64,000 nucleotides of DNA from Massalongia carnosa (Eukaryota). Below the pieces are notes generated by a model that made no database searches, was not told where the DNA came from, and saw nothing but the letters and a program-made list of their open reading frames with translations. Below, piece after piece: positions 23,246 through 48,334 of this stretch (positions are counted from its first letter, which is position 1; every line of letters starts with the position of its first letter). The DNA is taken from NCBI GenBank assembly GCA_965645245.1, contig OZ287073.1:186001-250000 (forward strand). Reading direction: 5' to 3'. A program made the translations under genes and the position numbers.

Positions 23246-23656
23246 GTTAATAGCCGTAAGTCTTGGCGTCGCATACGTCACGTGATACGCTTATTGAATA
23301 TATCGGTCAAGGGTTCACATGGGAATGGTTCATTGAACCTCAAGTATATAAGGTAGCTGAAGATCGCCGTTATGAGACGTCCAGAATCAACTCATGTTAA
23401 TACTCATAGCATACACTAGATAGTCTCTAGCTACTTCAGAGCAATACTAAGCTTGACAGGAATCAAAGTTCTAAGAGATCTGATAATACCTGTTCCTATC
23501 CCATCTTCTTCCCTGTAACTGCATCTCTCAACCCTCTCGTCGGAGACTACCTACCATGTCAGGATTCTAGGAGCATTCCTAGATTCTAAAAATATGGTTC
23601 ACGAAACAATCCACATACCTATCTGCCAAGCCGGATGAGCATCCAGTATTCTAAAT

Positions 23657-25782
23657 CTAGATCTTCGTCTGTTTGAGTATGTTCATGAGTCCCTTGATTT
23701 GCTCCCTTAGCTCATCCTTTTCCTTCTTTAGCTCATCCATCTGCTCCTTGTTCTCTTTCCTCTGCTGCTCCATCTCCTCCCTTTGCCTTTCCTCCTTCTC
23801 CTTGTTCTCCTCCCTTTGCCTTTCCTCCTTCTCCTTGTTCTCCTCCCTTTGCCTTTCCTCCTTCTCCTTGTTCTCCTCCCTTTGCCGTTCCATCTGCTGA
23901 AGGAGCTTGTCCATCTGCTCCTTTTGCTCTTCGAACAGTTTTTGGGCGCTGGCAGGAAAAACGGGAATCGCGAAACCTTCGGCATCTCGACCCTGCGAGG
24001 GTTGTTGGAAGCCTCGCGAGTCGTCCTCCAAGTTCATCGTACCTGCAGAGAATGATAGCGTAGAGGAGACTGGGAGAGCTGCGATTGCTTTCTGCAGCCG
24101 TTTCAACAGTTTTGAAGCGTGTATCATTAGGATATTGCGAGCAAAATTGTGGAGGGCCAGCAGGTCCCTCTCCTCGTGTGCAATGTCGAATTTCCGAATA
24201 TGATGGCGATAATACGTCCATTTTTCTTCTTCAACCAAGGCATAATGCCCGTAGAGGCGGGCATCTTTTTGATCGTGTGAGATAGAATAGACAACGATCT
24301 TGCCAAGCAAGCTCTCGAATTGCTTGTCCTCTCGGTACTGATCCGCCTTTTGCTCGAGCTTCAGAAGCGCCTTTACCGCCACACTGCAGCTGTGCATGTT
24401 CTGCCGGTCAGCATAGTCAAGTCCCATGTTGCCACACTTGACCTCGCACATCAGGAACGGGAAACACATTTCATTGGTTGGTCGCGTCAAGTTTTCAAAG
24501 GATGTGTAGTTGGTTAATATTTCATTTTCTGATACCGTAAAGGCGGAATGGAGGAAGCCAATGGCCAGGTCAGGTTCAGGCCGAGGTCCTGCCAGAACCC
24601 AACTCCCATGCCACTGCGCTCTAACTTGATCGGTAAAATCTTTGAAAATATTTGCTTCGTCCGTTAGATGTAGTGCTTTGATTGGCGGCAAAATCAGCGT
24701 CGTAACATCTCGGCTTACCATTGCTTCATTTGCATTCTGGCAAAGTTCGATCACCTGGAGTATTTTGTCCTCGGAATAAACAGTAGGAGAGATGGCCACG
24801 CATTCCATATTTCGAAGATCTTGGCAAGCCGCCTTGCTGTCTGGAGAAACAAGTTCTCTGCTTTTGATATAATTCATGTCCAGACCTTGTGTGAAAATGT
24901 ACGATTCGTACGATTTAGTATATTGCTCCGGGACATTTCCATCCTTACGGCTCTGAGAATAGCTCCGGGATTTTTCATCCTTGCTGCTTTGAGAATGATC
25001 CGACGTTCGCGGTCGTTTGTTGGTGTTGTTCGAAGACATTGCATGAGACTCTGCAAAGTTGTCGGGCCAGGTATGGTTCGCGGTCCAATAGCTGATAGGG
25101 TCGTCTTTCTCTTCCTCTTCGCTTTCTGAGGCTTCGTGCCCTTCTTCAGGCCTCTCAAAAATGGGACTGTATGTACTCGTACCTGATTGTTGTGGTGTTT
25201 GCCGTAAGGCCTTGCGCCTTTTCGGAGAGCGATTATTGACTTCCTCCGAGCGCGATTCTGGGGAAACAGCTCTCCTCCTTTTCTTCTCAGATGATTGCTG
25301 GTGTGGGTTGCTTGTTAATGGTGATGGTAGCTGATGATGTTCTTCGTTCTCCCTTGTGAAAGTCTTTCTCTCTAGATCAAAGGGCTGACCCTTAATTTGA
25401 GGGACTAGATCTTCAACTCCTTGTGATCGCTTTCGCTTTTGATCGAGTCTTTGGTCTAGGCCTGAAGGCTTCTCGCAAGTCGGTAAGTCCTGTGAACACT
25501 TTTTTTTACGATTAATTTTCCACGGTAACATTACAACGAATAGAGGACGTACCGAGCTGTGAGTATTGCTTGTTGACAGAGAGGAAAATGAATGCTGCTG
25601 AATGGTTTGGTCTTGGAAGTTCGCTCGCTTCTTTTGAGGTTGATGCTTTGTGATATCTTGAGGGCACTTTTCTGTTCAGAGGTGAGTAAGAGCGAAATGG
25701 ACGAACTATAATGGAACATCTCACGATTCAAAGTTTGCCGCCCTGATTTCTGGGCGTCAGGTTTTCGTTGGTCAGCGGCCAT
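23657..25782 (-). CDS. DUF7924-like protein (predicted PD-(D/E)xK nuclease fold) with C-terminal coiled-coil repeats
   Basis: Three-exon model (intron GTGAGA..ACAG ~25672-25724; intron 25499-25552) gives an open frame; motifs PRPEPDLAIGF, FPFLMCEVKCG, ADRQNMHS, YSISHD, LYGHY. Family name recalled from memory. Confidence 0.72.
23765..23890 (-). repeat. 33-bp coding tandem repeat (ERQREENKEKE x3 plus partial)
   Basis: CTCCTCCCTTTGCCTTTCCTCCTTCTCCTTGTT is repeated; a differently arranged array is at 13675-13870. Confidence 0.85.
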
Positions 25783-26247
25783 GTCGATTGAATTCGAGAG
25801 GGATAGAAGATGGTTTTTATGTTGGAGTACTCCGTAATCGTGCTAGACCACTTTCGGAATGCAGAGAGCACCCCTCAGTGCATTTTCAACATTTTACACC
25901 TCAACTTCAACAATCAACAACATAATGGTCAATTCATATTCATATCGAGGCAGAATTGACAGTGCAATTGACGCGTTACATGATGGTTTGTATACTAGTC
26001 TAACAATTGGAAAGTAGGAATGGGGCCATACTGTGCTTGGTTTGGTCTCAAGATTTATTTCGTACTAGAGATAGAACTTAATATTACGCGTGGCTGGATA
26101 ACCAGTGGCTTGTTCCAAATTGCGTGATGATAATTGGATACTAGAGAATCATGGCTGAGTTGGGCCGCTGACTAAACACCGCAACGCTCCAACCAAGAGC
26201 ATTCCTCCGTGTTTGTTACATCCACAGCTTTACATACTCCCTTCAGC

Positions 26248-27535
26248 ATGTCGAAATCCGATCGAGAGAATTGTCCAGTATCTTCATGTTCTCGATCTTA
26301 TTCTGGTAGTCGATGCAAAGACTGTCTGAGAGAACATCTTCGCGAATTTGGTGCTAAGTGCGGTATCCATAGAGCTTGGTGCTAAGTGCGATATCCATAG
26401 AGCTTATCTGACCATCAACTTCTCTTCGGCAGCGTTAGGAGCATCTTATTGTAGAGTCTGTGGGAAACGATTCCTTCGAAAGTCAACGTGGAAAAGGCAT
26501 GAAGATTCGCGTACGTACATCGAAAGATATCTAATCATTATTAGCCATGCTCATGGGGGTTTTTAAAGATTCCGAGAAAGTCTTCCGTTGCCTACTATGT
26601 CCAAAGACTGTTAACCAAAGGCGTCTTTTGGACCAGCATGTCCGCAGAGCTCATAGGAGAAAGGCCAACATAGTCTCAATCCACTCAAAACAAGCTCTTT
26701 GCGAGCCCCAGGATGATATTATCCCGCCATTAGAGCCTACAACCTGTCCAACCCCATCATATGAAGAAGAGTCTACAGCGTATACGAGATGTCACGAAAG
26801 CTTTATGCCCGATATGTGGCTTCAGCCCAGCGAGCCGCACGATACTGTGCCATTGAATAACCTCAGACACGTCTTCGGATCGTGGGGTTTAAGTGATTTA
26901 TTAGACTCGAGCAGTAGTATGACACTAGTTGGGAAGCACTCCCTTCAACAACCTGACGACTCTTCTGTGTTTCTTACAGGTGGGGGTCAGACGAGGCGTG
27001 ACATGACCGATTCTTTATTCTGCAGATGGGATGCAGCTATCGATTACAACGCGGTACCCCAGGTAGGGGCAATTTGAACGATGGGAAGTCATCCCGATTG
27101 TTTGAACAAACAGTTACTTTGGAGCCAATCATACGCGATGATCAGTCGCAACTGAATCATTCGTTCTCTGATCAACAGCCACTTTATAGCTCAATGGCTT
27201 TTTCGAGTATAACTCATCCTGGAGCTTCGATAAACTCCCTCTTCTGTACATGGGAGGCAGGTATTGAAACGAATGTGCTGCCTCATTACATAAACACTGC
27301 GAACCAGGAGGAATATTCTGAACCCTCTTCCCTTCCACCGCCTTCTTCCGAGATTGCTACGGATTGTGCTCTATCAAATTATGTGGACTTTGAGGCGAGA
27401 ATGCTCCTTGACTATTCCACGACACATGCAAAGCCTCATATGAGTACGCTACAAGCGGATTATGGCTCAATAGCTTCCTTGTTCTGCGCATCCTCATGCA
27501 GATACCCATATATCTTGTTGACAAGGACCTCATAG
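26248..27535 (+). pseudogene. C2H2 zinc-finger protein, frameshifted
   Basis: CPVSSC...LREH, YCRVCGKRFLRKSTWKRHEDS, FRCLLCPKTVNQRRLLDQHVRRAH; a 28-bp tandem duplication at 26348-26403 shifts the frame; second shift near 27065. Confidence 0.7.
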
Positions 27536-28479
27536 CCCTGTGATTTCAGTTTCAAAGCGAGTTGCCGTAGCCGTGATCTCTGACAAAAGCGCAAGCCATG
27601 AGGCGAAGATTTCTGATCTGGCGTGAATGGAACTCGAAAGGTGAGTGCAGTCGTGTCGATCTCTATATCCCATCTCCAGAGCTAACCAGTGGTTATAATG
27701 CCATTTGGGGAAAGCGTAACTGACGAATCGACAGTGTTTGATGAAAGCGAGTTCATTTTCTTTGACAGGAGGATCAAAATTGTCCAGTGAACAATTTCTC
27801 AGATATTTCAATATGTTACTAGAGAGCAACCTTTTATGCGAAATTTTGTACCTTTTTTAAAATATCTCATTACAAATACTATGACGACGCTGCCATTCCC
27901 TCTCGGTTTTCTGAAGGTACGCCAAACAAAATCGAGTAGATTCACTGCAGAATAAGGATGCTGCAAATAGGCACGCAAATAAGCAAGAAGATGTCTATAA
28001 TGAGGTGCGATAGGAAAGTCATCTACAATAGATGGAGCGTTAGTTGGTTTTTTCTATCTTTTTGTAATAAATTCGCCTTTTCTCGTAGAAATCAATGTCT
28101 ACTACCATGCTCCTCTGCCATTTTATCCGCATTCTTGGGCCAGTGCATTTATCCCCAATATATCTAAAGCTGTCGTAAAACAGAAATCTCAACCTCATCG
28201 ACAATCAGATTTATCCCTAGATACATAAGTCTGTACTAGGCCTCCTGGGAGAATGAGCTCGAGAGACACCTAAGAATCCAATAGCGAGCCTTGAGAAAGA
28301 GTAGCGGTTTTGGGCCTCTCGTCGCGACGACTTAGATAATTCCTCGACATCTTGTGACACTTTTTAACACCATAACACCGTTGATCCTCCTCTCTTTCTC
28401 AAATACTCACTCTACTACTACCTGATCATCTTAACTCTCCTAGAAAGATTCTAATGAGGATTTCTTCCACTGCAGAGAC

Positions 28480-28720
28480 TGTTGCTAAAGCGGCAGAGAC
28501 AAGAAAGAGGATATTGAGGCCGGAGCATCCTTCCACGCTGAGCAACATGGCCAAACTGGCATTGACCTACTGAAATCAAGGACGGTGAAAGGAGGCTGAG
28601 GAGCTAGAGGTACAAGTGATGAAGACAGGCTCGGGGATACTGGGAGAGGAGCATCTAGACACTCAAATCAGTATAGTCAACCTGGATTGGCATACACGAA
28701 TCAAGGACGGTGAAAGGAGG
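28480..28720 (+). pseudogene. Remnant of NLR-type (kinesin-light-chain-like) TPR repeats
   Basis: ETRKRILRPEHPSTLSNMAKLALTY*NQGR*KEAEELEVQVMKT...LGEEHLDT. Confidence 0.75.
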
Positions 28721-31700
28721 CCGACTGCAAGCATTATCAATGGTTTTCTCAAATCGATTTTCGGTTGAAATTTTATCCGAGTTAAACATATTAAGCTGTG
28801 CTTAGGTCCGTAGCTCAAATGAAATGATGACATCCAAAGTCGAGCGAGCGAGGCGACAAGCACAATCAGATCGTGCTAAGAAGCGGCATAATCAGGAACT
28901 ACTCAAGCAAGCACTGGTTAGCTGGATCCTTCGACAGAACGCTGAAGCAAAAAGCCGACAAGAAGCTATGTCGTGGGAAAACATTGAATAGAAACATGCG
29001 CTTCTTGATGGAATTTCTAGGTTGTTATTATGTATCACATCCTCTAGATTTATACCGTCTTTTCTTTTTAACCTAAAGGTTTCAGTCTCTTCATCATTCC
29101 TAGATAATAATCGAAGCTTGGCACTTACCCAGTGATCGACACCTCCCCCGACCTGCCACCAGGAGTGGGCACGCTGACGCTACTCATTATCATTCTCGCT
29201 CCCACTTTTTCTAATGCTTTTCTGCTGCTTTTATAGACTCCGATTATGGGTCACGAGACTCCTGAACGGGAAAGACATCTTAGACGTAGTGCTGTGAGCG
29301 GATGAGATCAATGCAAGCCGATAAAAAATGGCACTGCAGAGTGGCACAGAATCCTCAAAAGCTTCATAACTAATCCTCAAGCATTAGATCGATCCATCCC
29401 CGTTAGCCTCTATAACCTCACCAAACCCTTCACCCCTCCCTCACATACTGCTCGCCTCCTTTCTCTCTAACCTCCCCATCCCCTCCCCTTTCCTATTCGT
29501 CCGATCCGTTCGCCTCATGATCTATATCCTCCTCCCACATCTGTATCTGATCATCCCATGGATTCTGACGCGCCCAAGTCTCTTCCCATTGTCGAGGCGT
29601 CCATAGCTGATCCAGTACCGCGCGTCGATGCGGTGGAAAGGTCGCTTCACGCCATTCGAATAATCTGGCTCGAAAACGCGCGCCTTGTTCCGGAGCGATC
29701 AAATTGGCCCATTGTGTGTCTGCATGGGCCCATTGTCCTACTGCCACTTCCCATACAAGGGAGAACTGTTTCAACATGCCGGCTTTTTGTTGATGGACAC
29801 TAGGCAAAATTGGCATTTACGGAATTGGCCTCCCCATTATTTCCTGCCCTATTATGGGTAAGCATAACGAACCATTTTTTGATGATATAAATTGCCACTA
29901 CATCGAGCCTTGATCACGAAAAGCACAATCTCATTCGCTACAAGATTCAAGCGCTTTGCAAAGCGTGCCTCCTGCGCAAATATGGGATTGCCCATGATTC
30001 GCAGGGCCATTCTATTCTCAATAATAACGATTTCGTTTTTGATCGATCGCCCTATCATGTTAGTGTTACTTCAGTCAGGAAGGGTTGTCAAAAAAAAAGC
30101 AAAGGCTTGCTTGAATTATTGACCAAAGACGGAGCTTACTCTTCTTGTATAATCAAATACTGTCCCAGTTCTTCCCATAATCATAGCATGTCATTGATAT
30201 TAGTTGGAGATGAATAATCAATTTAATAAAAAGAATCCATGATTGATGATGATGAGGATTGATTCAGAAGATTATATTGTAGACCTTTCTGGTTGATATC
30301 AGAAAAACGTATTATTGAAATCAACAAACTTTCTGCTGTAAATCGCCAGGATTCGCTTTATTATCGCGAGAGATCTTGAGTGTTGAGACTGTGGTGAAAA
30401 TATGATGGCGCAAGAAAGAAAGCCTTGTAAATGGTTTCCCAATATATTTAGATGCTAGCAACGAAGGGGGAAGCAAGACGTCAACAGAAATAAACAGGAA
30501 AGCAATAATTCCGGGCGTCGATGTGACACAAATTAACCGCAGTCCAATGTAGACCATATGCCGATATGCCCATTTATTTCTGCGCAATTAGCTGAAATAT
30601 TCAGTGACATCTGGAACAAGGTCAAAAATGGACCACAGGACAGGTCGCTATTATGATTTGTATCTAAGCATAATGAGCATAACACATGAGCAATAGGCCG
30701 AATGATATTATAAGTATAGAGATCTCCGAGATCGAGAATTACGTGTGCTATTGTGTAGACTGTCAAAGAAACGAGAAATTGACATATGAGATAAATAATC
30801 AAAATCAAGATATTTTCTCCGCTCTTACTTCGCAGTAAGAGGTTGCATCGATTTGTGTAACAGTATAGCGTAGCATCTACGGAAGGTCTCTCACTACTCC
30901 GCAGAACTTGATCTCGCCATTGACCATTCTCCTCTGAATGGAGATGACACGTCTCTAGTGATCTATTCATCCACAGTAGTGCATCATACGATACCCCAAC
31001 GCTCAAAGGATCAAGAAGGCAGAAAATCCGAAAGCTCAAGCATTTGAGGCTCATGTGTCCCTAGGGAATTTTGGGTCAGCTCTGGGTAATGCCCACATCC
31101 CTTCCGCAAAGAACTTGGTGTTCGGAAACCTTGAGCCACTCACTCACGGCAACTTTATCGACGTCAAAAATGGTCGGCGCTCGCAGATGGGATGATGTTG
31201 GATGGTGATTATGCGGCTGCTCCAATAGCAGTTTAACACGGAGTCTCTGACGGAAGACAACAACCTTTCGGCCACCTCCTAGGCCCAAGGTAGTGCAAAG
31301 ATCCTCATCCCTATCGCTAACCCTAAATGCCTGAATTGCTGCAAGGTCGGGAACTTTGATTCGAGTTAGCCTTCGTGGCACAGTATTGGGGGATGACCAC
31401 AGGACATGCCTCTTCACAGAAGGCATAGTTCGCTAAAAGAGAGGAAGTGGATGTGTTTACTGAATGTGCTTGTCCTTGAACACGGATTGCTCGTAAAGAC
31501 GTTATATTGCTTGTAAGCGTGCGTCTTGATATCTTGAAGCCGCTTTCCTAATGATGGTCAACTCAAGCACACTGAACATGAACCACGGTATGCCCACTTT
31601 TCCTGACGTCTGGCTTTGCTTGACCGCGAGTCATGTGGATTGGAAGAAGAGGATAAGAGATAGGTTTATGGAGCCGCTGGCTTGAAATAAGACAGATGGT

Positions 31701-31949
31701 TGTCAACAGAAGATGGTGTGGCCGAGGCGAGAAAGTGTTGGCATGATGTGTGATGCTCAATTAGGGACCAGTTACGCGCCCCACGGCAGCTTATTGGCAG
31801 AGCAAAATTTGTGATCATCACTTGTTGTCGACGATAGGGATTAGTCGAGGATGCATGACTTGTACACGCCAACAATCAAGTCCTACCCCTCCTTCCAATG
31901 CATGTATCCTGAATCCTTTCTATTTTATTCCGCTAATGGAATATCCAAA

Positions 31950-32390
31950 CCTCATTTTCACGTTGAGGCTAATCGCGATCGAGCGGTGTCTCCAAAATCA
32001 GGAATGACAGGATGTCCGGGGGAGAAATGATTCGAAAAAAGAGAAGTGTTCTATTCTTAAAGATACGCAGCTTCATTTCTAGCTCAACGCCATCGACCTT
32101 TTCATCTGTAAGAGCCTTGACCATAGTTAGCTCTTCCTCCGTCGCTAGCTTCATGATAATCTGTTGCCCAGTTTCTGTATGCTCCTTGCTGATGAATTCC
32201 CAGGCCACCTTGAAGAACTTCTCACTCTGCGCGACTTGAAACTGCGTATTCTGTCTTGATATAAGGAATATCCACTCTCGGAAACCAGTTTCGAGTTCGG
32301 TCTGCGGTCGTGATCTAGCGGTAGACTGTGATGATTTTGTATTAACGCTATTCTTGCTCATCACAGCTTCGTGCGAGAACTTGCACTACT
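31950..32390 (-). pseudogene. Possible N-terminal remnant of an NFX1/ZNFX1-type zinc-finger helicase gene
   Basis: CKFSHE (CCCH tail), FREW, FFKVAWE, QQIIMKLATEEEL, LLFFRIISPPDILSFLILE resemble N-termini of fungal NFX1-type helicases; helicase core not seen. Confidence 0.45.
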
Positions 32391-32877
32391 ATCATTTAAA
32401 GCAAGGCAAAGCTATAGGAAGCACGAAAGATTATCACTAGAGGCAATGCTATGGTAAAGCTCTCTTCTAGTAGTGCAAGGCTCTTACGGGGTTAGTTAGT
32501 GTCTTTGCATTTCAGTGTGTGCTGTCAACAGAGAATTCTTATCTTTTTGACCAGATACGGTTTAGCTAGAATCCAGCGGAGTATTCAAGGATTTGATTCA
32601 TCTTTCTTCTTCATTTAGCATCAGCACTTGTTATTAATAGACTTCATCATTTAATCCTCCGGTGACCAAAAGTTCTTTTCCAACCCTCCTTCATGAGATC
32701 CTTTTCCGAAACCCCCCCCCAATCTTTAAAATCCTGAGCGTCGTAAATGAAACATTTCATAGACTCATCCGTGTTTTACGAAAAATTTTACACTCAATAT
32801 AACGGAGACAAGCGTCTCGCGAATGAAGCTTTTCATAAAAGTTAAAGTTAAATATTATTGCTAAAGGGGGTGAGGAT

Positions 32878-33066
32878 TAGTAGGGCTTTAAAAAGGGTAG
32901 GGAGTGAAAGAGAGTAGGGACTGGAAGGGAGTAGGAATTCAAAAATCATAGGAACTGGAAGAGAGTAGCGACTGAAAGGGAGTAGGGACTGGAAGTGGGT
33001 AGGAATTAGACGAGTGTAGGGACTGAAAGGGAGTAGTGATTGAAAAGGAATATGGACTAAAAAGCC
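32878..33066 (+). repeat. Degenerate 17-bp G/A-rich minisatellite (~11 units, consensus AGTAGGGACTGAAAGGG)
   Basis: Tandem units directly visible; related partial copy at 39560-39646. Confidence 0.8.
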
Positions 33067-33102
33067 CCAGTCATTTCAAAGCCTTAGGCGTGTTTCTTGG
33101 CT

Positions 33103-33220
33103 AGGGACTTTATTTCCCCAGAGCTTTTATTCTCCCAGGGCTTTCGTTTCCCTACTCTTTTCGTTTCCCGAGATAATGAAAGCCCTGGGAGAATAAAAGC
33201 CCTGGGGAAATAAAGTCCCT
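33103..33220. repeat. 43-bp inverted repeat (one mismatch) with 32-bp spacer
   Basis: AGGGACTTTATTTCCCCAGAGCTTTTATTCTCCCAGGGCTTTC (33103-33145) vs GAAAGCCCTGGGAGAATAAAAGCCCTGGGGAAATAAAGTCCCT (33178-33220). Confidence 0.9.
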
Positions 33221-33714
33221 GAGGGGACAAAAGCCCTGGGGGAATAAAGTTCGTAAGGAGACATAACTCGTGGGATCAAACTCGTAGAATGAAATTCTTA
33301 AAATACACACCAAAATTAAAGCAAAAATCTAGATTAATCTAATTGCACTCCACGCCTCTTTAATTACTGATTGCCTTTCCTTTTCACTCGCTTTTTCCAA
33401 GTCGGTTCTTTTCTTCGCCAACCAGCCTACGGATGTCTTGATCAGAAAAGTCAACAGTGCTCTTGAAGCAGCTAAGGCGTCAAATCCCACCTATGAAGTA
33501 TTCCAGGGAACTTGTGTCGCGATCCGAATCTACGCCGACAAGACTGAATCCGCTTACATCAACAGCCTGGCCGAACATCGATACCGCGAGACAACAGCGC
33601 GTGCGAAAGAAGACGAAAAGATGTATCTCGCTGAAGTCGTGGACGCACCTCATACTTCTTTCCATCATCGTCGATAAGGGATGCTCTTCCATTCCGAAAG
33701 TGGTTTAGCACGAT

Positions 33715-33816
33715 TAGGGTAACTATTAGTAGCAATAAACACGTCATACGATTTAAACCGAAAAGAGTTTAATGTGCTGTTGGCAGTTGCATTACTAGCT
33801 TGTACGCACCCTGGAT
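33715..33816. mobile_element. MULE subterminal fragment
   Basis: ~100 bp nearly identical to 17512-17612 of the MULE. Confidence 0.88.
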
Positions 33817-34009
33817 GACAGTACGTAGTAACTGTTTAAGCATCTCGTTAAGCCTGGGCTTGACGTTTTCAGCCTTATATGGATATCATTCAGCCGCGCA
33901 ACAATAACAGCTTGACTGATGCTTTCTATACCACTCATTTCCAAAGCCAGCCTCTGCACATTCCTACCAGGCTAGTTGTATAAGTCGCAGAAAGCTAGGA
34001 CCTTCTATC

Positions 34010-37000
34010 ATGCCAGATAAAGATTTATGCCTATTATCTCTTGATGGCGGTGGAGTGCGAGGGCTATCGTCACTCGCAATCCTCAAGCGACTGATGGAGA
34101 TCATCAATCCGGATGCGCCGCCGAAGCCATGCGAGTATTTCAACATGATCGGAGGGACAAGTACCGGTGGATTGATTGCTATCATGCTAGGTCGTCTTGA
34201 GATGAATATCGATGAATGTATTGATGCCTATGTCGCATTGTTCGATCAAGTGTTTAAAAAAAAGCGGCATCGTGTCACAATAAACGGACACGTGCAGGGG
34301 AGATTCGACACGGAAGAGCTGGAACGGTCGATTCGAGAAATCGTAAAGCGGAAGGAGAAGGCAGGGGAAAATGCTCTCCTCAAAGGATCAGAGAATCAGC
34401 AATGCAAGGTGTTAGTGCTTCGGAAGTTGCATTTACACGTATAATTCTAGTGATACTAATGAAAGCTAGATTTGTATGCGCTCTGAGCAAAGAGACTGCC
34501 GACACAGTCCTTTTCACATCGTATCCTTCTCGAGGATCATCAGATATGTACCATAAGACACGAATTTGGGAGGCAGCTCGAGCCACATCTGCCGCATCAT
34601 CCTTCTTTGATCCAGTAAAAATTGGCCAGTTTGAAGAAGAGTTTGTCGATGGGGCTGTGGGGGCTAACAATCCTGTCGCACATCTTTGGAACGAGGCCAA
34701 AAGTGTGTGGTCAGATGAAGCGCTTGAGGGAAACATCAAATGCCTGATATCTATCGGTACCGGTGTTCCATCCTTGGATTCTTATGGCTCAAGCCTCTTC
34801 GAGATTGCAAAAACGTTGAAAGACATTGCAACAGAGACAGAAAAAACAGCGGAGTCTTTTCATCGAGCGCATTCCGATCTCGACGATGGGAATCGCTACT
34901 TTCGTTTCAATGTTTCTCATGGGCTTGAGAGTATTGGACTCGAAGATGCAGCACAGAAGAACAAGATCATGGCCGCCACAACCCGCTATGTGGCTTTGGA
35001 AAGCGTGATGAAACAAATGAAGCTTTGTGGAAAGAATCTTTCAACACGAGAATGTGCGTCAATGTTTGCTTGATAATTCTTGAGTTACTAAATCCTTGAA
35101 TAGACAGTGGCTCATATAAAGTGCCGTTCAGTTTGAAAGGCTTACCCCGTGTACCCAAATTCATAGCTCGTGATCAGGAAATGAATGACCTTAAGAATAC
35201 CCTTTTTCCCAAGCCAACTCGTGAGACTCGCCGGAAGGTGTTCGTTTTACACGGACTAGGCGGCTCCGGCAAGACTCAGCTAGCAATCGAGTTCGCTCAA
35301 AGATCGCAGAAGATTTTCAGTTCTATTTTTTGGCTAAACGGCGATAGTAAGGAAAGTGTAAGTCAAAGTCTTGCACAGATTGCTCGGCAATTACCCCCAG
35401 ATCAGATTCCGGATTCATGTAGAAAATTCTCTAAAACATCCCCTGAAGAGCTAGATGAAATCATTAGCAATATTCTTATTTGGTTCAGTCAACATGAAAA
35501 CAATCAATGGCTTCTCATTTTCGATAATGTCGATCGTGATAGTTCCCTTGAGGTAAATGATCCTCAATCATATGATGTGGAAGATTTTTTCCCGGAAGCC
35601 GATCATGGCTCTATTTTAATCACAAGCCGATTACGACAGCTTCGACAACACGGGCAGGACCGGCAACTTGGAAGGATGAGCGATCTACAAGGAGTAGAAG
35701 TATTACGATGCAGGATAGGACGATCAGTTGAAGGTAATGACATTCGAGCAACAGTCTTAATCCAATTTACTAAGCATTATATAGGCCTTGATAGAATCGT
35801 CGAGAAAGTGGGTGGTCTCCCACTTGCACTTGCTCATGCAGGCTCCTATATCCACGGAACAACTACAAGTGTGAACGACTATATTCGATACTATGAAGAG
35901 ACTTGGGAGAAGCTTCACAACAACAAAACGACCCGATTAAAAGATTATCCTCGTAGCATTTTATCTACGTACACCATTTCCTATGAATATGTGCAACGCA
36001 ATGACGCGAGCGCTGCAAAATTGCTTAATCTGTTTGCATATCTCGATCATTCAGATTTATGGTATTCTTTATTCGCACCTATACTTGATGAAGACGAGAG
36101 CATTATCCCAAAAGAGACATTACCTATCTGGTTTTTATGTAGCATGAAGACGGAATTTGATTTTACACAGAAGATTCAAATACTGCTGGATTACTCCTTG
36201 ATAGAAACACGATATGAGATCTTATCTTATGCGATTCATCCAATTATACATGACTGGTGTTTTCACATGAATCTAACCTCTAACGACGAGATAGCTTCTT
36301 TAGCAGTTTCTGTAATCGGTTCCGCATGTCATTCCACTGACAGTTCAGCAAACTGGCTGCATCGAAAACGACTGGCTGGTCATTGTAGTTATGTTCACTT
36401 CTGGATTGGAAAAAAACATCAAAACCTCGAAAGGAATATGAGATGGGAACAGGTACTATATCCTTCGTATCATGCTATTGGCTATTTTTCAAACGAACAA
36501 GGCAAGCTGAGCGAGGCCGAAGAGATGTATCTGCGGGCATTGACAGGATACGAAAAGGCCTGGGGTCCTGATCACACATCAACGCTCGCCACAGTCAACA
36601 ATCTAGGAAGTCTGTATAATAATCAAGGCAAGATGAACGAGGCCGAAGAGATGTATCTGCGGGCATTGACAGGATACGAAAAGGCCTGGGGTCCTGATCA
36701 CACATCAACGCTCGACACAGTCAACAATCTAGGGCTTTTGTATAAAGATCAAGGCAAGATGAACGAGGCCGAAGAGATGTATCTGCGGGCATTGACAGGA
36801 TACGAAAAGGCCTGGGGTCCTGATCACACATCAACGCTCAACACAGTCAACAATCTAGGGCTTTTGTATGTAGATCAAGGCAAGATGAACGAGGCCGAAG
36901 AGATGTATCTGCGGGCATTGACAGGATACGAAAAGGCCTGGGGTCCTGATCACACATCAACGCTCGACACAGTCAACAATCTAGGAAGTCTGTATGCAGA

Positions 37001-39347
37001 TCAAGGCAAGATGAACGAGGCCGAAGAGATGTATCTGCGGGCATTGACAGGAAAGGAAAAGGCCTGGGGTCCTGATCACACATCAACGCTCGACACAGTC
37101 AACAATCTAGGGGCTTTGTATGCAGATCAAGGCAAGATGAACGAGGCCGAAGAAATGTATCTGCGGGCATTGATAGGATACGAGAAGGCCTGGGGTCCTG
37201 ATCACACTTCAACGCTCAACACAGTCAACAATCTAGGAAATTTGTATAAAGATCAAGGCAAGATGAACGAGGCCGAAGAGATGTATCTGCGGGCATTGAC
37301 AGGATACGAAAAGGCCTGGGGTCCTGATCACACATCAACGCTCAACACAGTCAACAATCTAGGGCTTTTGTATGTAGATCAAGGCAAGATGAACGAGGCC
37401 GAAGAGATGTATCTGCGGGCATTGACAGGATACGAAAAGGCCTGGGGTCCTGATCACACATCAACGCTCGACACAGTCAACAATCTAGGAAGTCTGTATG
37501 CAGATCAAGGCAAGATGAACGAGGCCGAAGAGATGTATCTGCGGGCATTGACAGGAAAGGAAAAGGCCTGGGGTCCTGATCACACATCAACGCTCGACAC
37601 AGTCAACAATCTAGGGGCTTTGTATGCAGATCAAGGCAAGATGAACGAGGCCGAAGAAATGTATCTGCGGGCATTGATAGGATACGAGAAGGCCTGGGGT
37701 CCTGATCACACTTCAACGCTCAACACAGTCAACAATCTAGGAAATTTGTATGTTGATCAAGGCAAGATGAACGAGGCCGAAGAGATGTATCTGCGGGCAT
37801 TGACAGGAAAGGAAAAGGCCTGGGGTCCTGATCACACATCAACGCTCAACACAGTCAACAATCTAGGGCTTTTGTATGCAGATCAAGGCAAGATGAACGA
37901 GGCCGAAGAGATGTATCTGCGGGCATTGACAGGAAAGGAAAAGGCCTGGGGTCCTGATCACACATCAACGCTCGACACAGTCAACAATCTAGGAAATTTG
38001 TATAAAATCCAAGGCAAGATGAACGAGGCCGAAGAGATGTATCTGCGGGCATTGACAGGAATGGAAAAGGCCTGGGGTCCTGATCACACATCAACGCTCG
38101 ACACAGTCAACAATCTAGGGGCTTTGTATGCAGATCAAGGCAAGATGAACGAGGCCGAAGAAATGTATCTGCGGGCATTGATAGGATACGAGAAGGCCTG
38201 GGGTCCTGATCACACATCAACGCTCAACACAGTCAACAATCTAGGGCTTTTGTATAATAATCAAGGCAAGATGAACGAGGCTGAAGAGATGTATCTGCGG
38301 GCATTGACAGGAAAGGAAAAGGCCTGGGGTCCTGATCACACATCAACGCTCGACACAGTCAACAATCTAGGAAGTCTGTATAAAAGTCAAGGCAAGATGA
38401 ACGAGGCCGAAGAGATGTATCTGCGGGCATTGACAGGAAAGGAAAAGGCCTGGGGTCCTGATCACACATCAACGCTCGCCACAGTCAACAATCTAGGGCT
38501 TTTGTATGCAGATCAAGGCAAGATGAACGAGGCCGAAGAGATGTATCTGCGGGCATTGACAGGAAAGGAAAAGGCCTGGGGTCCTGATCACACATCAACG
38601 CTCAACACAGTCAACAATCTAGGAAATTTGTATAATAATCAAGGCAAGATGAACGAGGCCGAAGAGATGTATCTGCGGGCATTGACAGGAAAGGAAAAGG
38701 CCTGGGGTCCTGATCACACATCAACGCTCGACACAGTCAACAATCTAGGAAGTCTGTATAAAAGTCAAGGCAAGATGAACGAGGCCGAAGAGATGTATCT
38801 GCGGGCATTGACAGGAAAGGAAAAGGCCTGGGGTCCTGATCACACATCAACGCTCAACACAGTCAACAATCTAGGAAATTTGTATAATAATCAAGGCAAG
38901 ATGAACGAGGCCGAAGAGATGTATCTGCGGGCATTGACAGGATACGAAAAGGCCTGGGGTCCTGATCACACATCAACGCTCAACACAGTCAACAATCTAG
39001 GAAATTTGTATAATAATCAAGGCAAGATGAACGAGGCCGAAGAGATGTATCTGCGGGCATTGACAGGATACGAAAAGGCCTGGGGTCCTGATCACACATC
39101 AACGCTCGCCACAGTCAACAATCTAGGAATTCTGTATGCAGATCAAGGCAAGATGAACAAGGCCGAAGAGATGTATCTGCGGGCATTGACAGGAAAGGAA
39201 AAGGCCTGGGGTCCTGATCACACATCAACGCTCGACACAGTCAACAATCTAGGAAGTCTGTATGCAGATCAAGGCAGGATGAACGAGGCCGAAGAGATGT
39301 ATCTGCGGGGCTCAAGCGGCTTACCTGTGCCAGGTATGACATTCTAG
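34010..39347 (+). CDS. Fungal NLR: patatin-like phospholipase - NB-ARC - TPR (PLP-1-like architecture)
   Basis: Patatin DGGGVRG, GTSTG, FVDGA; P-loop GLGGSGKT; Walker B WLLIFDNVD; GLPLAL; 22 full 42-aa TPR units. Introns 34411-34469, 35054-35103 and probably 35734-35784 give one open frame. Confidence 0.93.
36498..39309 (+). repeat. Highly conserved 126-bp TPR tandem array (22 units plus partial)
   Basis: CAAGGCAAG at 36498 to CAAGGCAGG at 39270 spans 2772 bp = 22 x 126. Confidence 0.95.
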
Positions 39348-40349: not shown

Positions 40350-42530
40350 TCAAGTGGGCGTCTTGTGAACCAACTCCGCATGGTTCTGCAAGTGCATTGT
40401 GCTTGTCAAAATATCTTGACACCTTGGATTAGAGCATGCGATCGGATGACCGTCCTGATGATGACGAAGGTGTTTACAATGGAAGTGCTTTTTCAGATCG
40501 TAGTGGCTGTGGAAAGACTTCAGACGTGTCTCGGTGGGTAGCGCTACACAGCCGAGGCAAAAGATACATTGAGTGGGTTCGCATTCAATCGGGACGGAGT
40601 CTGAAAGAGAGGCCGGATCGAGGACAGATGGTGGTGTCAGATGCCGTTCCTTGATGACCGACGCGGAAAGTTTTGAACGACGTGGACGCTTGCTTTCCTG
40701 CAAGCGACAAAGGGCTGTCAAAGCATTGATCGCTTCCACCCGCCGTTTGCACTCTTCCTCTGAGGATGACTTCACGAAGGTGAGGAGGGTATCGATGACC
40801 CGGACACGCTCCTCGAAGACGTAATCCTCTGCCTTCGCCGTCTCCAGTTCTTCCGACGGCAGTCCTTTCAGCTTTCGTTGAATGTCGATCACCGGCTGCT
40901 CCCTCTTATACCTCGCTTTGACTCTTGTAAAAGAGCCTCCTCGGCCGCCGTTTTATGTTGCGATGAGCTTGATATGCCTTTTGGTACTTATCGTACACTG
41001 ATGTCCCCTTCATGCTCGCGATGGGTCCATGATTGTCTTTGATGAACTGGAACATTTTCTTTTGCCTCCGGCGAAGGAGTCTCACCTCTGGCTGACGATC
41101 GACCTGGGCTTTTTGGGCGTCATTGAGCTTCCGAGGCCGTCGTCGATCAATCGTACGACTCATTCCACTGGCGAGCCGTATCAACGCATTTTGCGGCTTC
41201 AAACCATGATAGGCGGCCCCGGCATCACTTGTGATATACCTCGAGAGATAGATTTTTAAAGAACACGGTGGAGTTGTGATGTTGCAAAATCAGATTCCGT
41301 TGCGATTCACTGATAAAGCCTGTGCAAGGGTCAGCGAAAAGCTCAAAAGAAGATTGACAGAGGTCGTGTTACACACTTGCTGTTGTCGAGAGCTTCGCTA
41401 TTGCCGCGTCGAAAGATGTATGAACCGGTGGGAAGCTTCATGCCGGTGACGCTTCCAAGGGTTATCATCCGTGAGCGAAGAGTACTGTCAGTACTGTCAG
41501 GCAGAGCTTTGTCATCCGAAATTCGAACTCCGTTCACGGTGAATTCGGATCGGCGGAAGAGGAGAACGTGTAGCATCGTTTCCTTAAGGGGAAACGGCAG
41601 CTGTTTCTATCCCCGGGGGATCCGGAGACGGAATAACTGTTCGGCAGAAATTAATTCGGGAGCGGCGAAGGCCTGATCGATAAAGATCAAAGTGAGTAGG
41701 TTCAGACGAGGACAAAGCAACAGGCATGGTTCGTCAGGCTCGTCAGGAATCCTGAACTCATTTCTATGATACTTGTCAGTCGTTCAGCGAAACTGTCCGT
41801 CTCGACGAAGAAAGCACAAAAGGGCAACATGGACGTTTCTTTATCGCCTAGATAGCCCTTCGTATTCTTGAATGCGATTTCAATCAACCGTCGAGGAAGC
41901 TCCCCTCCTCCGAGATCCGCAAGCAAGGTGATCTTAACATCTTTGTAGCACACACCCAAGAGGGCAGCAGGACGGTTTTCTGTGATTCCGGCTAGCTGCA
42001 TGATCAAGGCTAGTTGTACACGGTGCCGCTCGTGATCAAAGACGATCCCGACGGAGAGAAACAATGTCTTCAGGAGCTCGAACTCGTCCTCGGCCCGCAT
42101 GATGAGCTTCTTCTTCTTCTTCTTCTTCTTCTCAGTCCTTAACCCATGCTTCAGAGCGAGCCGTTGTCTCGCCTAGTACTGGTTAATCAATAGAGGCGTA
42201 GAATGGGGCTCTCATACCCCGTGCATCTGGCTTTTGATAAGCGGGTCGATCTCTAGACAGCCAGTCTCTTTCTTTAGTGTTTGCAGGATACTAGCCGTAC
42301 TCAGCCGATCTTTTCGAATGGAGAGTAGCCAGTCGAAGAAGACGTAGAGGATGTTGATAGAGATCTCATTGAGAGTCATGACGGGGTTCTTCCCAGTGAA
42401 TTCGCAATATCTGTCAGCCTCGATCAGATTTCGCCAGTCCACGATAGTAGTAGTAGCATCTCCTTACCGATACCAAAGGTTCTTAATCTAGCTCTATAGA
42501 TCCTCGCTGCTATCCTTGTAAACTCGTTCA
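40350..42530 (-). pseudogene. DUF3435 tyrosine recombinase (Starship captain family), degraded
   Basis: HERHRVQLALIMQLAGITENRPAALL, FKNTKGYLG, CLLLCP, SYIFRRGNSEALD, QRNLILQH, YLSRYIT, GMSRTIDRRRPRKL, RRVEAINALTALC, QCIFCLG, HLQNHAELVH; introns plus several frameshifts/stops; no clear start. Confidence 0.88.
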
Positions 42531-45200
42531 GGGAAAAATTAGAGTCGACGAGCGTGGACGATAGGTGATCGACGTGAAGGAGGGACGGCGAAAATGGAAG
42601 TGGGAGAATAAGAGGGTTGGAAAGGCGAAGATGAAGGGTAGAGGGACACGAAGAGAAAGGTCGTCAGAGACGATGGGAACGGAGGGGAAGCTGAGCAGAA
42701 CAGCCGATTCTGGAGGTCGGGGGGAACGATGAAATAAATACCAGTTGTCGGACAAGGACCATGAGGGCCAGCTGAGTGATGATGCTTGAGGCATGAAACG
42801 CTCGACGTGGTAAGGTGATGCGCAAGAGCGACCGGGGACGGGTAGGGCGGCGGGAAAAATCCAGCAATATAGAAGCTGAAACAAATAATGTGAAGAGAGA
42901 AGCTGCAATTTATGATTTGAAAGTGGAGGACTGAGCGCCTTGAGGTCTACTTTCGCGTTAGCAAGTGCGTTCTAGACGTGCGAACTAGCTAACTTATACT
43001 CGATATGCGTTTGGGAAGAGAATTTTGATATGTGGCTTTTAGATGGCAGACAGTCTTTCATTATATTTATTATCTTATAAGTATTCCTCACAGTCATTAA
43101 GATGAGAGATGAACCACTGCATTTCATTTCAGGCTTGTTTTCTCTGCCCAAAAAAAGGTCAGTAATGTTTTGATCTCGAAAATATAGGCACACATTAACT
43201 CACTTCGCAATGACTCAGAGAGGCCATCTCTTCTATGTTTGCTAATAAATAACACACCAGGCTGTAACTAAATAACAAGGGTGTTTACATTGATATATGA
43301 CCTCGGTATAATCACACATGTTAAGATGAAAGGCAGCAGAAACGAGATTAAAGAATCTAACAACCTGGCGAGAGATGGAAGTGCTTCTGAAGGAGAGAGA
43401 GGTTTAAATAGACTTTGCATATACGGCGAAGAAAGCCTCTTTCTATATGCTTTCCGATCTCGTTCTCCAGACAAAGTCATCATCCTGCGCCCCTAATCTC
43501 AACAGAGCAGAATACATAGTCATCGCACATTCTTGTCCAGAACCCCTCCAGCAATAGTAGCTGCATACTTTATACTAGTCAGTAGATGTTTCATGACCAA
43601 ATCCATTGGCTGACGTAAAGAAAACCGAGCCCATAGGGATCATAAGCCCATAAGCTGCCTTCACAGCGAATCAAAGTATCATGTACGCCACAGATGTCTG
43701 CGTTGAGGACGTACATGAAAACCGGGTATTGAGCTTGATTTATTGATCTAAGCTCTTGGTGATTGGAGAATGATTTACGTTTTAGATAGACACTTGAAAT
43801 TGACACTTGGAATTGAGGTGATGATTGCTTGCATTGAAAGGATTTTGCACCCATTCTCTCAGTTACTAGAATGTTGGGATTCGGTTAATAGATTACCGTA
43901 TCCGAGCTACATATCGCTTACTGCTTGACCACTAAACTGGCTGACACCGGGGAACCATACGGTCTTGGGCAGATTGGAGCTGAATTTCGGGTGAAACTGG
44001 CCTCCGGTGATAGAGCAGCAGTGACGCACATATCCGCTTGAGAATCTATGGAGATCTGAGAGATCATAGGATGGGTTGAAGTAGAGACTGAGTTTATTGA
44101 ACTACTGAGCTCGATAGAGCAGAATATATAGCTCAAATGATAACTAAGTACACATGTGAAAGGGGACATACAGAGGACATGTGAAAGGGGACATGTCGAG
44201 TGCATGTGATTGAACATGTGAAAGAGTGAGATTATTCCGGCTGATAGAATCTATAAAGTCCTCAGTTTGAAAAAAGTTCATCAATCCGGAAGACTTTGTA
44301 AACCCTAAACCTGCTAACAGCAGCGAAGAATGTCCTTTGATGTCAGAAATTGATCTATCTGATTGACGGATGAATTCTGCTTGCTCTGAGATTGAGTTGT
44401 CGAAGAGTGAGATAGCCGATGGAGGATATTGTCTATTGCAATGTATTTCAACTCTGCTTTCTCTGTAGGCTATGATCTCGCGGTGGAATCATCCTGCAAC
44501 CTTCAACGAAGCGACTTTGAAACAAAGGACTCACTCCTTACGGAACATGACGTGTATCTTCTTGATTTTAATCCTTATATTTGTTTTTATGATCCTTTGA
44601 CTAGCTACGAGTTATTGATGAAGGCTTAAAGTGTTCAGAATACTCGCTTAGCCCCATTAGTTCTAGCTCAGCCCTGCGGGCTGCCATGACTGCTATAAGC
44701 CTTAGTAACCTGAAGTTGAAGTCTCGCGCAGCGCTTGCGCAGCGAGAAAATTTTTTCTTTTGAAGCAATTTAAACCGTCAAATGGGGCATCCTTCAACGA
44801 GTAGATCCGTGCCTGAATTGTCTGATTTGATGTGCTGTGAGGTGTAGGATCGCCGTGCAAAACCGACGCCCTGCTTGGCCCTGGTTGTTGCGAAAGTCGA
44901 CATTTGCGCTTCGCAATCGAATCACAAAGGGGTTTTGCTAGAATTTTAAAACTGGGTTTGCTGAAAATAGCATCTTCTGAATAGAAGAAGCATCTTACCC
45001 CGAGTAGAATTAACGTAGCGCTGATGGCGCGATACGTGATGCGGTTGCACGCCTCGTCACAAGATGTCCCACCCAGTCACAGGAACGAGAAGAAGGTACT
45101 ACGGGCACATTACGAGCGATCGCTTCTTAATAGAAACGATGTTACAGGCCTCCATGACTAGTACTCGTAGAGAGAAAGAAAGGTATCATTGACCTATCTA

Positions 45201-48028
45201 CTATCTACGAAGCAGATCCTCTCCAGCGTCAATACGCTTAGAGATCTGATGTCCAGAGAACCCCAAACTGTTAACTTCCCGCGCAATATCCCACGAATCC
45301 CTCCCCTGCTCATTCGCCTTCCCCTGAAGATACCGACGGATCCGTCTTTTGACGTAGAACCGCTGCCTCAGGGCAGGAGTGTACCTCCACTTAGCCCAGA
45401 AGAGGTGGTCCAACTCGTCGAGAGACGTACGCCGGACCCCCTCCACCAACGTATCCACCGCGAATTCCTCCAACACCGCCTCCGTCGAGGTCACGCCGCC
45501 GAGAATGGGCTCCGCCGGGCAGTCAGGAGGACGCTGAGGCGACCCCTCTTGGGGGAGGGAGCCACAGGGCGCAGAGACTGTAGACGCCTCTCCGGGGACG
45601 GAAGTGAGGACGACAGAAGGTGTAGGAAGGAGAGAAGCGACTGCGTCGACGTACGAGGACGCCGACGCAGCAGGCTCTTCACTAACGGAATGCGCCGCCG
45701 TCGCAAGAGCAGTCGCCTGCCCTCGCCAAGAAGCCTCGTCCAGCAGCCAGTCCCTCCGAACAGCCTCCACAGGAACCGTCAGAAAGGATCGAGGTAGCGT
45801 TGAGACCGTGGCCTGCAACTGTGAGAGCTGCGAACCCAGGACTCGAGCTATCTCCTGGGCATTTGCCGCCGGCAGCGCACTCAAGATGGTCGTCGCACTC
45901 AAGATGGTCGTTAGCTGGCTCTGCCCGGAGAGCAACCTCTCCACAGCGTTGAGCGTGCGATCTTGCTTGATCGCAACACCGCTGACCTTGTTACTGACGC
46001 CATCAACGGAGTCAGCAACAAGAGACAGCACGCCATGGATGGCCACGTACAAAGGTTCATTTTTTACGGCCTCCAACTCCCGTATCTTCGCCGCGAACGC
46101 AGGCCAAAGGGGATCTCTGAAGACTTGGTGTCTCCAGAGCGAAAGCTTAGGAAACTGAGGCTGTAGAAGCACCGCGTCTTGCAGGAAGACACAACGCAGC
46201 CGCAGCAACATCTCTAGAACCTCCTTCCTTGCCTCATCCGCATCAGGAAAAAGATCGCCTTTGTACGCCGCTAGAGCGTCATCCACCCAAGACCACACTT
46301 GCCGCTGCAGGGCCAGATCCGGTGAGTGTCCTCCTCTTCTCAAAAAGTAACTCCCTGGGGAGTTGCTAAAGCCGGCGGCGCGACGCATGTAGACACGCGG
46401 CAGGCGGGTGAGGTAGTTAGTGGCCCAGACGCCACGTTCCCATCCGCCTGCTCTCATGATCTGTAGTAGTTGGTATAAGGGTAATGCTAGTAAGTATAAG
46501 GGGCCATGAATCATAGAGTACTTGCCTAGTCCGCGGGGACCTCTCACATGTCGGCCAGCCGTGACGAGGACTGCCGCATGGTGTGGACCGTCTTGGAGCT
46601 GTCGACGCCGACAGCATCCAAAGCCGGCTTAATCCATCGGGCCTGTGTTTTGTCGGAGATCTTCTCCTTAGATCGCGCCAGGCTCCCGGAGATGACCTTC
46701 GTGAAATATCACGAAGATCGATCTCGGAAGTCCGGCCGCTTCTCCAGAAGGAGGTCCCAGCGCAAGACGAGCCAATGGGCGAGGGCGCCGAGAGGACAGA
46801 GGACGACATCTCTGCTCCGCAAATCACCATGATAATGCTGACGGCGCGAGTTGCCCCCGTCCGCCAGATGAACGCTCTTCCCCTGGCCAATTCGAAGGAT
46901 AAACGCAAGGCATTCGGACCCCTCGTTAGGAAGGTCGTAGGCGCAGAGGTCAGGTAGCTCAGCCCTTCGCGTTGACTTCCCCCGCAGCATCATCGAATGC
47001 ATTAGAAGGAAGTCGAGGCGAGTCCGCAGAAGATGCCACTCGCCGCCCGCCACGCCCTCCTCCCCAAAAACCTTGCCCCCGGCGAGCAGCATTGCCGACA
47101 ATTGAGCGGCCTGCTCAGTCGTGTAGCCGTCGGTGAGGCCGTGGATCGCGCGATCCTTGAACGAGGCTCGCTTGAAAGCGCTTCAATCGATGCGTAAGCG
47201 CGCCATCAGGGCTTTGATGACCTTCCCTCTGGGATGGGGCACCACCAAATTCTCTTCGAGATGCTGATCATCGAAGAGGACGCAGAGGGCAGAGACGTAG
47301 CCCGATTCCACGCTATCGGGCGCCAGGGGCCGGGATAAAGGATCGTCGGCTTGCTGCAAGACGAGTCAGTAAGCTACAAAAAGATGCTTCTATTCCTGAA
47401 TTCGAGTTCAGGGGGCGACTCACCGTCTCAACTAGCTCCTCGCCGTCGGAGAGTTCCTCGAATTTTTCCACCTCCTCCACCTCCTCTCCCTCTACCGCTG
47501 GCGAGGCTTCCACCGCCTTCATCGCCTTCCCCTTCCCCCTCTTCAACGCGCGGCGCTTAGCCTGCCGTTGGCGATTCTGATCCCGCCGCCTGGCCTGCGC
47601 TGCTGCGCCTGTGAGCTTGGGACGTGGGACGAAGCGCAGGTGGAGGACGACCTCTTCGAGGAAGAGGAGCATCTTCCGCTCCCACACAAGGACGCCGTCA
47701 GGAAAATTGCGACGTCGGCACCACTTCTGTAGGATGTTAGCGTAAGCCCAAATTTGCAGGGCATACCTATCGTAGTCACCTCCCACAGATGCCAGCACTT
47801 GCGGTACGTCTTAAGGGTGTTTGCCCTCCGATCCTCCTCCCGCATCCCGCGGACGCGCCTCATGGTGGCGGCCATGGCGGCCTCGTTGTTGCCGTGGGTG
47901 GCATAGGCCTGAGACTCACGCTTGACGGCGTCGACATCAACGTAAGCCTCAGGAGGAGGCCAAGAAAGAGGCGCCGCCGTCTCCGGATCTGCGACAGCGG
48001 GGCCTGCAGCGGAGGGGCCAGGGTCCAT
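45201..48028 (-). mobile_element. CryptonF-type tyrosine recombinase (Ndc10 domain-II-like plus Gcr1 C-terminal-like), disrupted
   Basis: LRTRLDFLLMHSMMLRGKSTRRAEL, GQGK, CPLGALAHWLVLRW, VHTMRQ, RAGGW...NYLTRLP, and C-terminal LDELDHLFWAKWR...FYVKRRI; visibly GC-richer than flanks; stops near 46527-46548. Confidence 0.85.
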
Positions 48029-48334
48029 CGTGCGGCCGCCAAAGAGGGTATCCGTGGTATGTAGAACGCTCGTTGATCAGCAAGTCGCTCGCGGCGCAAA
48101 ACGGGGACAGGCAGGCTTTTTGCAGTTCGACTGAATGGGTCGAGGAGAGAAAATCGTGGTATGGAGCTTGGTCACGGGCGATATTGTCCATATACAGCGT
48201 GACGATTTTGCAGGGTAACGCCTATAAGTGGGTTTATACCCCAAAGTCACAGGCGATAAGGCCACTTTTGGAAGGACCGCCAAGCCAGCATTTTTTACGC
48301 TAAATCTCAATCCCGCGGCCCCAAAAAAAAAATC

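Follow-up and report, generated by a model that had tools for sequence, protein, structure and literature searches.

Does the receptor gene considered here act alone, as one allorecognition locus, or does it belong to a larger repertoire? The gene lies on contig OZ287073.1 of Massalongia carnosa (assembly GCA_965645245.1), in a stretch of 64,000 nucleotides (contig positions 186,001 to 250,000) that we call the window and number from its first letter. At 34010..39347 on the forward strand it encodes a 1,725-aa NOD-like receptor (NLR), modeled with three GT..AG introns, in which patatin and NB-ARC domains precede an array of tetratricopeptide repeats (TPRs). The original prediction, made from the letters of the window, treated this NLR as a single locus; it took in neither a family of at least 30 copies nor the Starship captain gene adjacent to the NLR. 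On balance, the evidence favors an intact patatin/NB-ARC/TPR receptor with repeats of high internal conservation (HIC) that belongs to a group of at least 30 recent paralogs, which would form a dispersed receptor library seeded by a derelict Starship block.

Pfam profiles for Patatin, NB-ARC, and TPR_10/12 matched the window NLR in this order and in one frame, giving the succession patatin, NB-ARC, linker, and TPRs that had been predicted as a PLP-1-type architecture. The motifs GGGVRG, GTSTG, and DGA are kept, as are the P-loop GLGGSGKT and the Walker B motif LLIFDNVD; the catalytic GTSTG and DGA were correctly predicted to be intact. By its domain order and its intact lipase and Walker A/B motifs the window NLR is a member of the fungal patatin/NB-ARC/TPR class. 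The third intron is in frame in the window copy and was called as an intron because it is 50 or 55 nt long in other paralogs. Contigs from sequencing run X8, which is only guessed to be RNA, are ∼90–95% like the window NLR; their joints match introns 2 and 3, and a loose end at 35734 runs on into exon 4-like sequence. Because of these joints, a relative is probably transcribed and spliced.

The array comprises 22 full 126-bp units and a partial 23rd, each full unit translating to a 42-aa repeat. The mean DNA identity between units is 93.7%, above the >85% used to define HIC NLRs, with 18 distinct units at the DNA level and 17 at the protein level. As predicted, the near-identical units vary at fixed sites with exactly the residues listed, namely unit positions 18 (Y/K/M), 31 (A/D/N), 38 (S/L/A/N/I), and 41–42 (NN/KD/VD/AD/KI/KS). 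A minor T/I site at position 16 (3 of 22 units) had been overlooked. Codons 18, 31, 38, 41, and 42 hold 91% of the amino-acid (non-synonymous) differences among the window units, and 13 of the 23 polymorphic base columns fall inside them, a clustering beyond chance because only 26 of 100,000 random placements reached this number. The proportion of differing non-synonymous sites (pN) was 0.427 at the five codons and 0.006 at the other 37, where the synonymous equivalent (pS) was 0.068; as the codons were picked after inspection and scored by a counting method, this contrast is descriptive and not a formal selection test. The signal is confined to these codons; over whole units pN/pS was only 0.83. 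Non-synonymous changes make up about three quarters of the pairwise differences, and multi-base codon swaps (TAC/AAG, AGT/CTT, GCA/AAT) occur, both as anticipated.

Codons 37 and 39 have synonymous variants that change together with codon 38, and the differences therefore come in blocks; window units 3–5 recur exactly as units 7–9. All four two-state combinations were present for 10 of 10 site pairs in subfamily A (defined below) and for 5 of 10 in the window alone, showing that the variable sites have recombined, except for the tightly linked pair 41/42 in the window. The code is thus combinatorial, as had been proposed.

Eight units modeled with AlphaFold2 (pLDDT 91) formed a helix-pair solenoid whose best fold matches were the TPRs of the kinesin light chains KLC1/2. 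In the Pfam TPR_1 register, unit positions 31, 38, 41, and 42 equal TPR positions 2, 9, 12, and 13, and the invariant Asn-35 equals position 6; unit position 18 is located in helix B. According to PMC1261162, TPR positions 2, 5, 9, 12, and 13 are the most variable concave-face, ligand-contact positions, and the Asn at position 6 contacts the backbone. Because the register coincides with positions named there, four of the five variable sites map to the concave face of the predicted TPR groove, onto which the original prediction had suggested mapping them. Judged among the paralogs of this single genome, the array is not invariant and its variable sites are not buried, the two outcomes expected to speak against the prediction; no public contig spanned the array. 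KLC-type 42-aa TPRs (KLC1/2 and a P. anserina repeat protein in the PDB, 4Y6C/4Y6W) are alike in unit length, fold, and conserved NN motif, but the arrays described here are far longer and stop mid-unit. Repeats of the HIC TPR kind whose concave-face sites are under positive selection are already described in fungal NLRs (Dyrka 2014, PMC4986451), and Podospora and other fungi have HIC TPR NLRs that share with the window NLR near-identical repeats, length variation, concave-face variable sites, a KLC-type model, repeat exchange between genes, and an association with transposons. The hypervariable pattern is therefore known; the unusual part is the dispersed, recently amplified receptor library.

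The first 2.6 kb of the window NLR matches at least 30 loci on 16 contigs at 91–100% DNA identity in a nucleotide search in which the best 37 of 55 candidates were scored. An independent Patatin profile scan (76 of 76 candidates scored) returned the same 30 loci and one partial duplicate. Two subfamilies, A with 20 loci and B with 10, are ∼92% identical to one another. The frame is fully open in 17 of the 30 loci and the N-terminal part is open in 23; the 17 open copies are 92–100% identical and each carries its own array of 6–39 units, with 172 codes among 460 units across the family. At 27 of the 30 loci a contig end is no more than 350 kb away, and with two further repeat-bearing genes (L050 and L051, below) the count is 29 of 32 against an expected 11.5, reached in 0 of 200,000 simulations; contig ends are here only presumed to be chromosome ends. 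Per species, patatin NLRs number 1.7 on average (PMC4986451), and PMC13449251 (section 6) states that P. anserina has no highly similar intact NLR duplicates, probably because of repeat-induced point mutation (RIP). The 17 open copies set the present family apart from the Podospora HIC NLRs in this respect. No comparable family of NLRs, whether subtelomeric or from lichens, came up in literature searches, which covered few subscription papers and no supplements; higher per-species patatin counts could exist in the remainder.

Purifying selection acts on the N-terminal receptor part. There, pN/pS was 0.40 (A–A), 0.51 (B–B), and 0.29 (A–B), and for patatin it was 0.31, 0.29, and 0.16, respectively, although between such young paralogs pN/pS is a weak measure. 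These values bear on whether the copies are a neutral by-product, hitchhiking in a recombinogenic subtelomeric junk zone with variable codons that are tolerated surface sites reshuffled by conversion. Surroundings rich in transposable elements, the broken copies (13 of 30), the whole-unit pN/pS, and the block-wise differences around codon 38 all agree with neutrality, which we nevertheless regard as quite unlikely: open frames persist in 17 of 30 NLRs but in 0 of 16 neighboring captains, patatin pN/pS is low, and the same five unit positions vary in A and B, drawing on residue sets that differ in part, and other surface positions are fixed.

Arrays change faster than their flanks. At the other end of contig C7, a twin of the window NLR (L021) has exons 99.7% identical and 13.4 kb of downstream sequence 99.6% identical to those of the window; its array has 24 units against 22, with only 2 identical aligned units and 10 gaps. 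Five of the seven close pairs examined are rearranged in this way (for example, 39 versus 10 and 25 versus 12 units). An assembly artifact is another possible account, in which a mixed (thallus) sample yields haplotigs or mis-joins that mimic a family: the two ends of C7 resemble a large inverted duplication, the stretch is present in a lichen metagenome run, and long repeat arrays are error-prone. However, the copies differ by up to 9%, their flanks are different, the 16 contigs that carry them are of megabase scale, and the exact 126-bp spacing is kept in most arrays, making an artifact extremely improbable. In the mirrored ends of C7, matches near 220 kb and 425 kb correspond to matches near 2514 kb and 2290 kb, and insertions distinguish the two ends.

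Units also appear to move between loci. Of 338 distinct units, 36 are shared by two or more loci, some of them 97% identical upstream. A-type repeats were found in two other genes with unrelated N-termini, L050 and L051, at which only 1–2 of 111 non-variable bases differ from A, compared with 12 between A and B; this indicates, at the level of sequence, repeat exchange or fusion through the arrays. L050 has a single-copy N-terminus, no NB-ARC or NACHT match in its upstream open reading frames, an array with a repeated six-unit block, and the same dead captain downstream; its tail retains ∼36 more bases of the last unit than do the A copies. The gene tree and the downstream-flank tree reject each other (approximately unbiased test, p ∼1e-4), and divergence is higher in the downstream flanks (4.1%) than in the gene (2.4%). 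The idea that arrays are special crossover hotspots was not upheld, because control halves within a region conflict too. Exchange of TPRs between genes and transposon association of NLRs are described in PMC13449251 (GBE 2026). The NWD/HNWD genes (het-d, het-e, het-r) likewise share a repeat pool across different N-termini and have few hypervariable positions, but they are NACHT-WD40 proteins with about ten divergent members, whereas the present family is NB-ARC-TPR and recently amplified.

The captain adjacent to the window NLR is a pseudogene with at least one exonic stop and two frameshifts. A captain lies beside 15 of the 20 A copies and beside L050, but beside no B copy (60 of 60 candidates scored). 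All 16 adjacent captains are broken in comparison with intact homologs, and the block was classed as Starship-like and derelict. One frameshift near homolog residue 466 is common to all 15 captains that retain the site; it therefore predates the spread of the block, and spread probably occurred by subtelomeric ectopic recombination after captain death. The frameshift lies after what we take to be the catalytic core, and residual activity may have persisted at the time of spread. In some copies the homology of the block reaches 11 kb or more upstream and ∼5 kb downstream; in others it breaks at many different points, with nested long terminal repeat (LTR) and Crypton-like insertions inside the region. 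No common ends or target-site duplications were found across copies, the ends being hidden by nested elements; a bounded element was consequently not recognized.

A different account of the same block is true Starship transposition, earlier in cis or in trans via another captain, with an NLR that serves the element, for instance by causing the death of fusion partners that do not carry it. This account draws on the captain directly adjoining the NLR at 15 loci, on captain relatives that come from lichen fungi, and on two sequencing runs that share the organism label of a run containing the stretch but have next to none of its short sequence words. PLP and NLR genes are, moreover, recognized Starship auxiliary genes (PMC9156397, PMC13486527). 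We consider transposition unlikely, as every captain is broken with a frameshift in common, the two other captain loci examined are distant (27–38% identical to a family homolog over the main aligned stretches) and both interrupted, common ends were not found, and the contig-end bias is strong. The B copies and a NACHT-ankyrin NLR family have also amplified without a tie to this captain; the latter has ∼19 copies, so amplification is not unique to the patatin-NLR block. Starships and their derelicts (PMC9156397; Tangerine, PMC13486527) resemble the present block in having a DUF3435 captain beside a PLP/NLR gene and cargo that outlives the element; here, in contrast, the captain is dead in every copy, no boundaries were found, and the 16 captain copies in this one genome lie nearly all near contig ends.

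Upstream homology among A paralogs (at least 8 copies) breaks at several points 125–240 bases before the start codon, corresponding to 33800–33890 of the window, which is possibly an insertion hotspot that rewires promoters. Partly inverted 17-bp tandem repeats lie upstream of the NLR at 32879–33250, with a related copy just downstream at 39565–39630.

The original prediction had also pointed to the SNARE SEC-9. Neurospora PLP-1, Podospora PaPlp1 (het-z), and Cryphonectria VIC2 have the same Patatin, NB-ARC, and TPR order with catalytic and P-loop motifs and, according to reviews, are allorecognition genes acting with a SEC-9-type SNARE; NLR/SNARE systems are reported to have arisen repeatedly in fungi (PMC12881547, PMC10197012, bioRxiv 2022.04.03.486892). 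Shared domain order and motifs, together with this repeated origin, would fit a PLP-1 ortholog that guards SEC-9 as one het/vic locus. However, one essential gene cannot be the partner of all 30 copies, which are unlinked and differ in code, and no SNARE-domain (PF05739) gene was found within 200 kb of any copy; the genome's five matches (among six candidates) are other SNARE types as judged from their translations, SEC9 itself not being among them. The closest proteins are hypothetical proteins of lichen-associated ascomycetes (55–60% identity in NB-ARC), and in patatin exon 2 the homolog P0002 is 84% identical, compared with 44% for P0078, the only Neurospora patatin NLR compared and not established as PLP-1. 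None of the hits examined was a sequence named PLP-1. The origin of the closest proteins, together with the lichen metagenome run, points to a lichen-associated fungus as the host. A more distant patatin/NB-ARC/TPR gene is present on C7 as well. A SEC-9 guard is thus very unlikely, and the proposed SEC-9 link, which was not upheld, is an analogy only.

We return to the reading of a dispersed library derived from a dead Starship. The A ancestor would have been auxiliary cargo beside a captain that was frameshifted first, after which ectopic recombination may have copied the block from one chromosome end to another. Arrays would be rewritten faster than flanks through unequal crossing-over and gene conversion, weak RIP would let duplicates survive, and selection would retain receptors while captains decay. 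By extension from the known family, a non-self or modified-self ligand would bind in the TPR groove with specificity set by the residues at the variable positions; NB-ARC would then oligomerize, and the patatin lipase would damage membranes and kill the cell, as reviews report for PLP-1. The role is likely to be surveillance of non-self (parasites, other fungi, or conspecific fusion partners), with many ligands rather than one.

Besides the limits given above on contig ends and on pN/pS, several observations weigh against this reading. The X8 joints belong to a relative and not to the window copy itself. Every array stops mid-unit, and the capping helix that homologs carry is missing, a difference that could affect folding. 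The tail type of the window NLR recurs at 19 of 20 subfamily A loci, and a C-terminal truncation artifact peculiar to the window was rejected since paralogs share this tail. Close to half of the family (13 of 30 copies) is broken, subfamily B has no captain, so that a Starship origin is argued for A only, and two pairs among the C11/C13/C19 copies are largely collinear (19/21 and 14 matching codes). The tree conflict is not array-specific, and halves of one region correlate moderately (rho 0.56 and 0.24). Subfamily B has a slight CpA bias (p 0.009) and the genome holds four C5-methyltransferase loci, owing to which a loss of the RIP machinery was not upheld. Subfamily A shows no CpA excess, and six window segments gave RIP indices that are not RIP-like; RIP looks weak in this family, rather than demonstrably absent.

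Little is known about the ligands of fungal NLRs or about the rules behind HIC repeat codes, and RIP removes close duplicates in the main model species. Seventeen open, near-identical patatin NLRs that differ mainly in groove code are a natural panel for linking code to ligand, and the family allows array turnover to be timed against flank divergence inside one genome. It also bears on how Starship cargo turns into a host immune repertoire after the element dies, and it draws attention to lichen-associated fungi, where the literature searches returned no account of such a family. A more speculative extension, which we think doubtful, is that chromosome ends act as a standing receptor library: recombination among the ∼30 copies, broken copies, and unrelated TPR genes would yield new binding codes and effector-sensor fusions, possibly during vegetative growth, amounting to a quasi-anticipatory repertoire seeded by a dead Starship. 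The logic would be comparable to that of the var and vsg reservoirs.

Table 1. Features of the NLR gene, its surroundings, and related loci (window positions unless a contig is given)
Feature	Position	Strand	Basis
Exon 1, N-terminal half of patatin	34010..34410	+	Pfam Patatin, gene model
Oxyanion motif GGGVRG, exon 1	34046-34063	+	
Nucleophile motif GTSTG, exon 1	34154-34168	+	
Intron 1, GT..AG, 59 nt	34411..34469	+	Restores frame; GT..AG in 30/30 paralogs
Exon 2, C-terminal half of patatin	34470..35053	+	Pfam; 84% identity to homolog P0002
Catalytic DGA, exon 2	34648-34656	+	
Intron 2, GT..AG, 50 nt	35054..35103	+	Gene model; run X8 contigs show spliced-form joint after 35053
Exon 3, NB-ARC	35104..35733	+	Pfam NB-ARC, gene model
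P-loop GLGGSGKT, exon 3	35253-35276	+	
Walker B LLIFDNVD, exon 3	35511-35534	+	
Intron 3, 51 nt, in frame in window copy	35734..35784	+	Paralog lengths, X8 loose end
Exon 4, first part: remaining NB-ARC and helical linker	35785..36497	+	Open reading frame translation, Pfam, gene model
22.3 HIC TPR units of 126 bp, kinesin-light-chain type	36498..39309	+	Tandem-repeat call, AlphaFold2, fold matches
Short tail after partial unit, without the capping helix seen in homologs P0002/P0006	39310..39347	+	Paralogs, homolog sequences
Starship captain pseudogene, DUF3435 tyrosine recombinase, convergent (tail-to-tail) with NLR	40350..42530	-	Profile scans, homolog comparison
Probable LTR remnant upstream of captain, common to several copies	44246..44697	.	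Inferred from paralogs with retroelement interior following
Crypton-like element (NDC10_II), tyrosine recombinase, multi-copy	44698..48350	-	Same spot in three other copies
Upstream part of duplicated block, shared to varying lengths by other copies	22867..34009	.	Includes DUF7924 gene, 17-bp repeats
L051, lipase-like N-terminus (judged from motifs)/NB-ARC NLR with A-type repeats	G000:C19 ~230500-235200		NB-ARC region 39% identical
L050, AcuF-like zinc-finger protein fused to A-type TPR array	G000:C17 ~147800-152400		

The Crypton-like element has copies at 93–97% identity (best 27 of 523 candidates scored), three of which share a 217-bp internal inversion. The more distant patatin/NB-ARC/TPR gene (L110-L111, G000:C7 ~2206000-2210400) lies among transposons and does not belong to the family. 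Charged coiled-coil repeats of 33 bp mark two DUF7924 genes, at 12371–13063 (+) and 23657–25531 (-), the second inside the duplicated block. At 17784–19292 (+) an interrupted gene combines ankyrin repeats with a C-terminal SsdA-like deaminase domain. A second HIC NLR occupies 54140–60083 (-) and comprises DUF7708/NPHP3_N and NACHT domains with 26 ankyrin units of 99 bp; its variable unit positions are 5, 6, 15, and 16, and its ∼19 genome copies are 82–100% identical.

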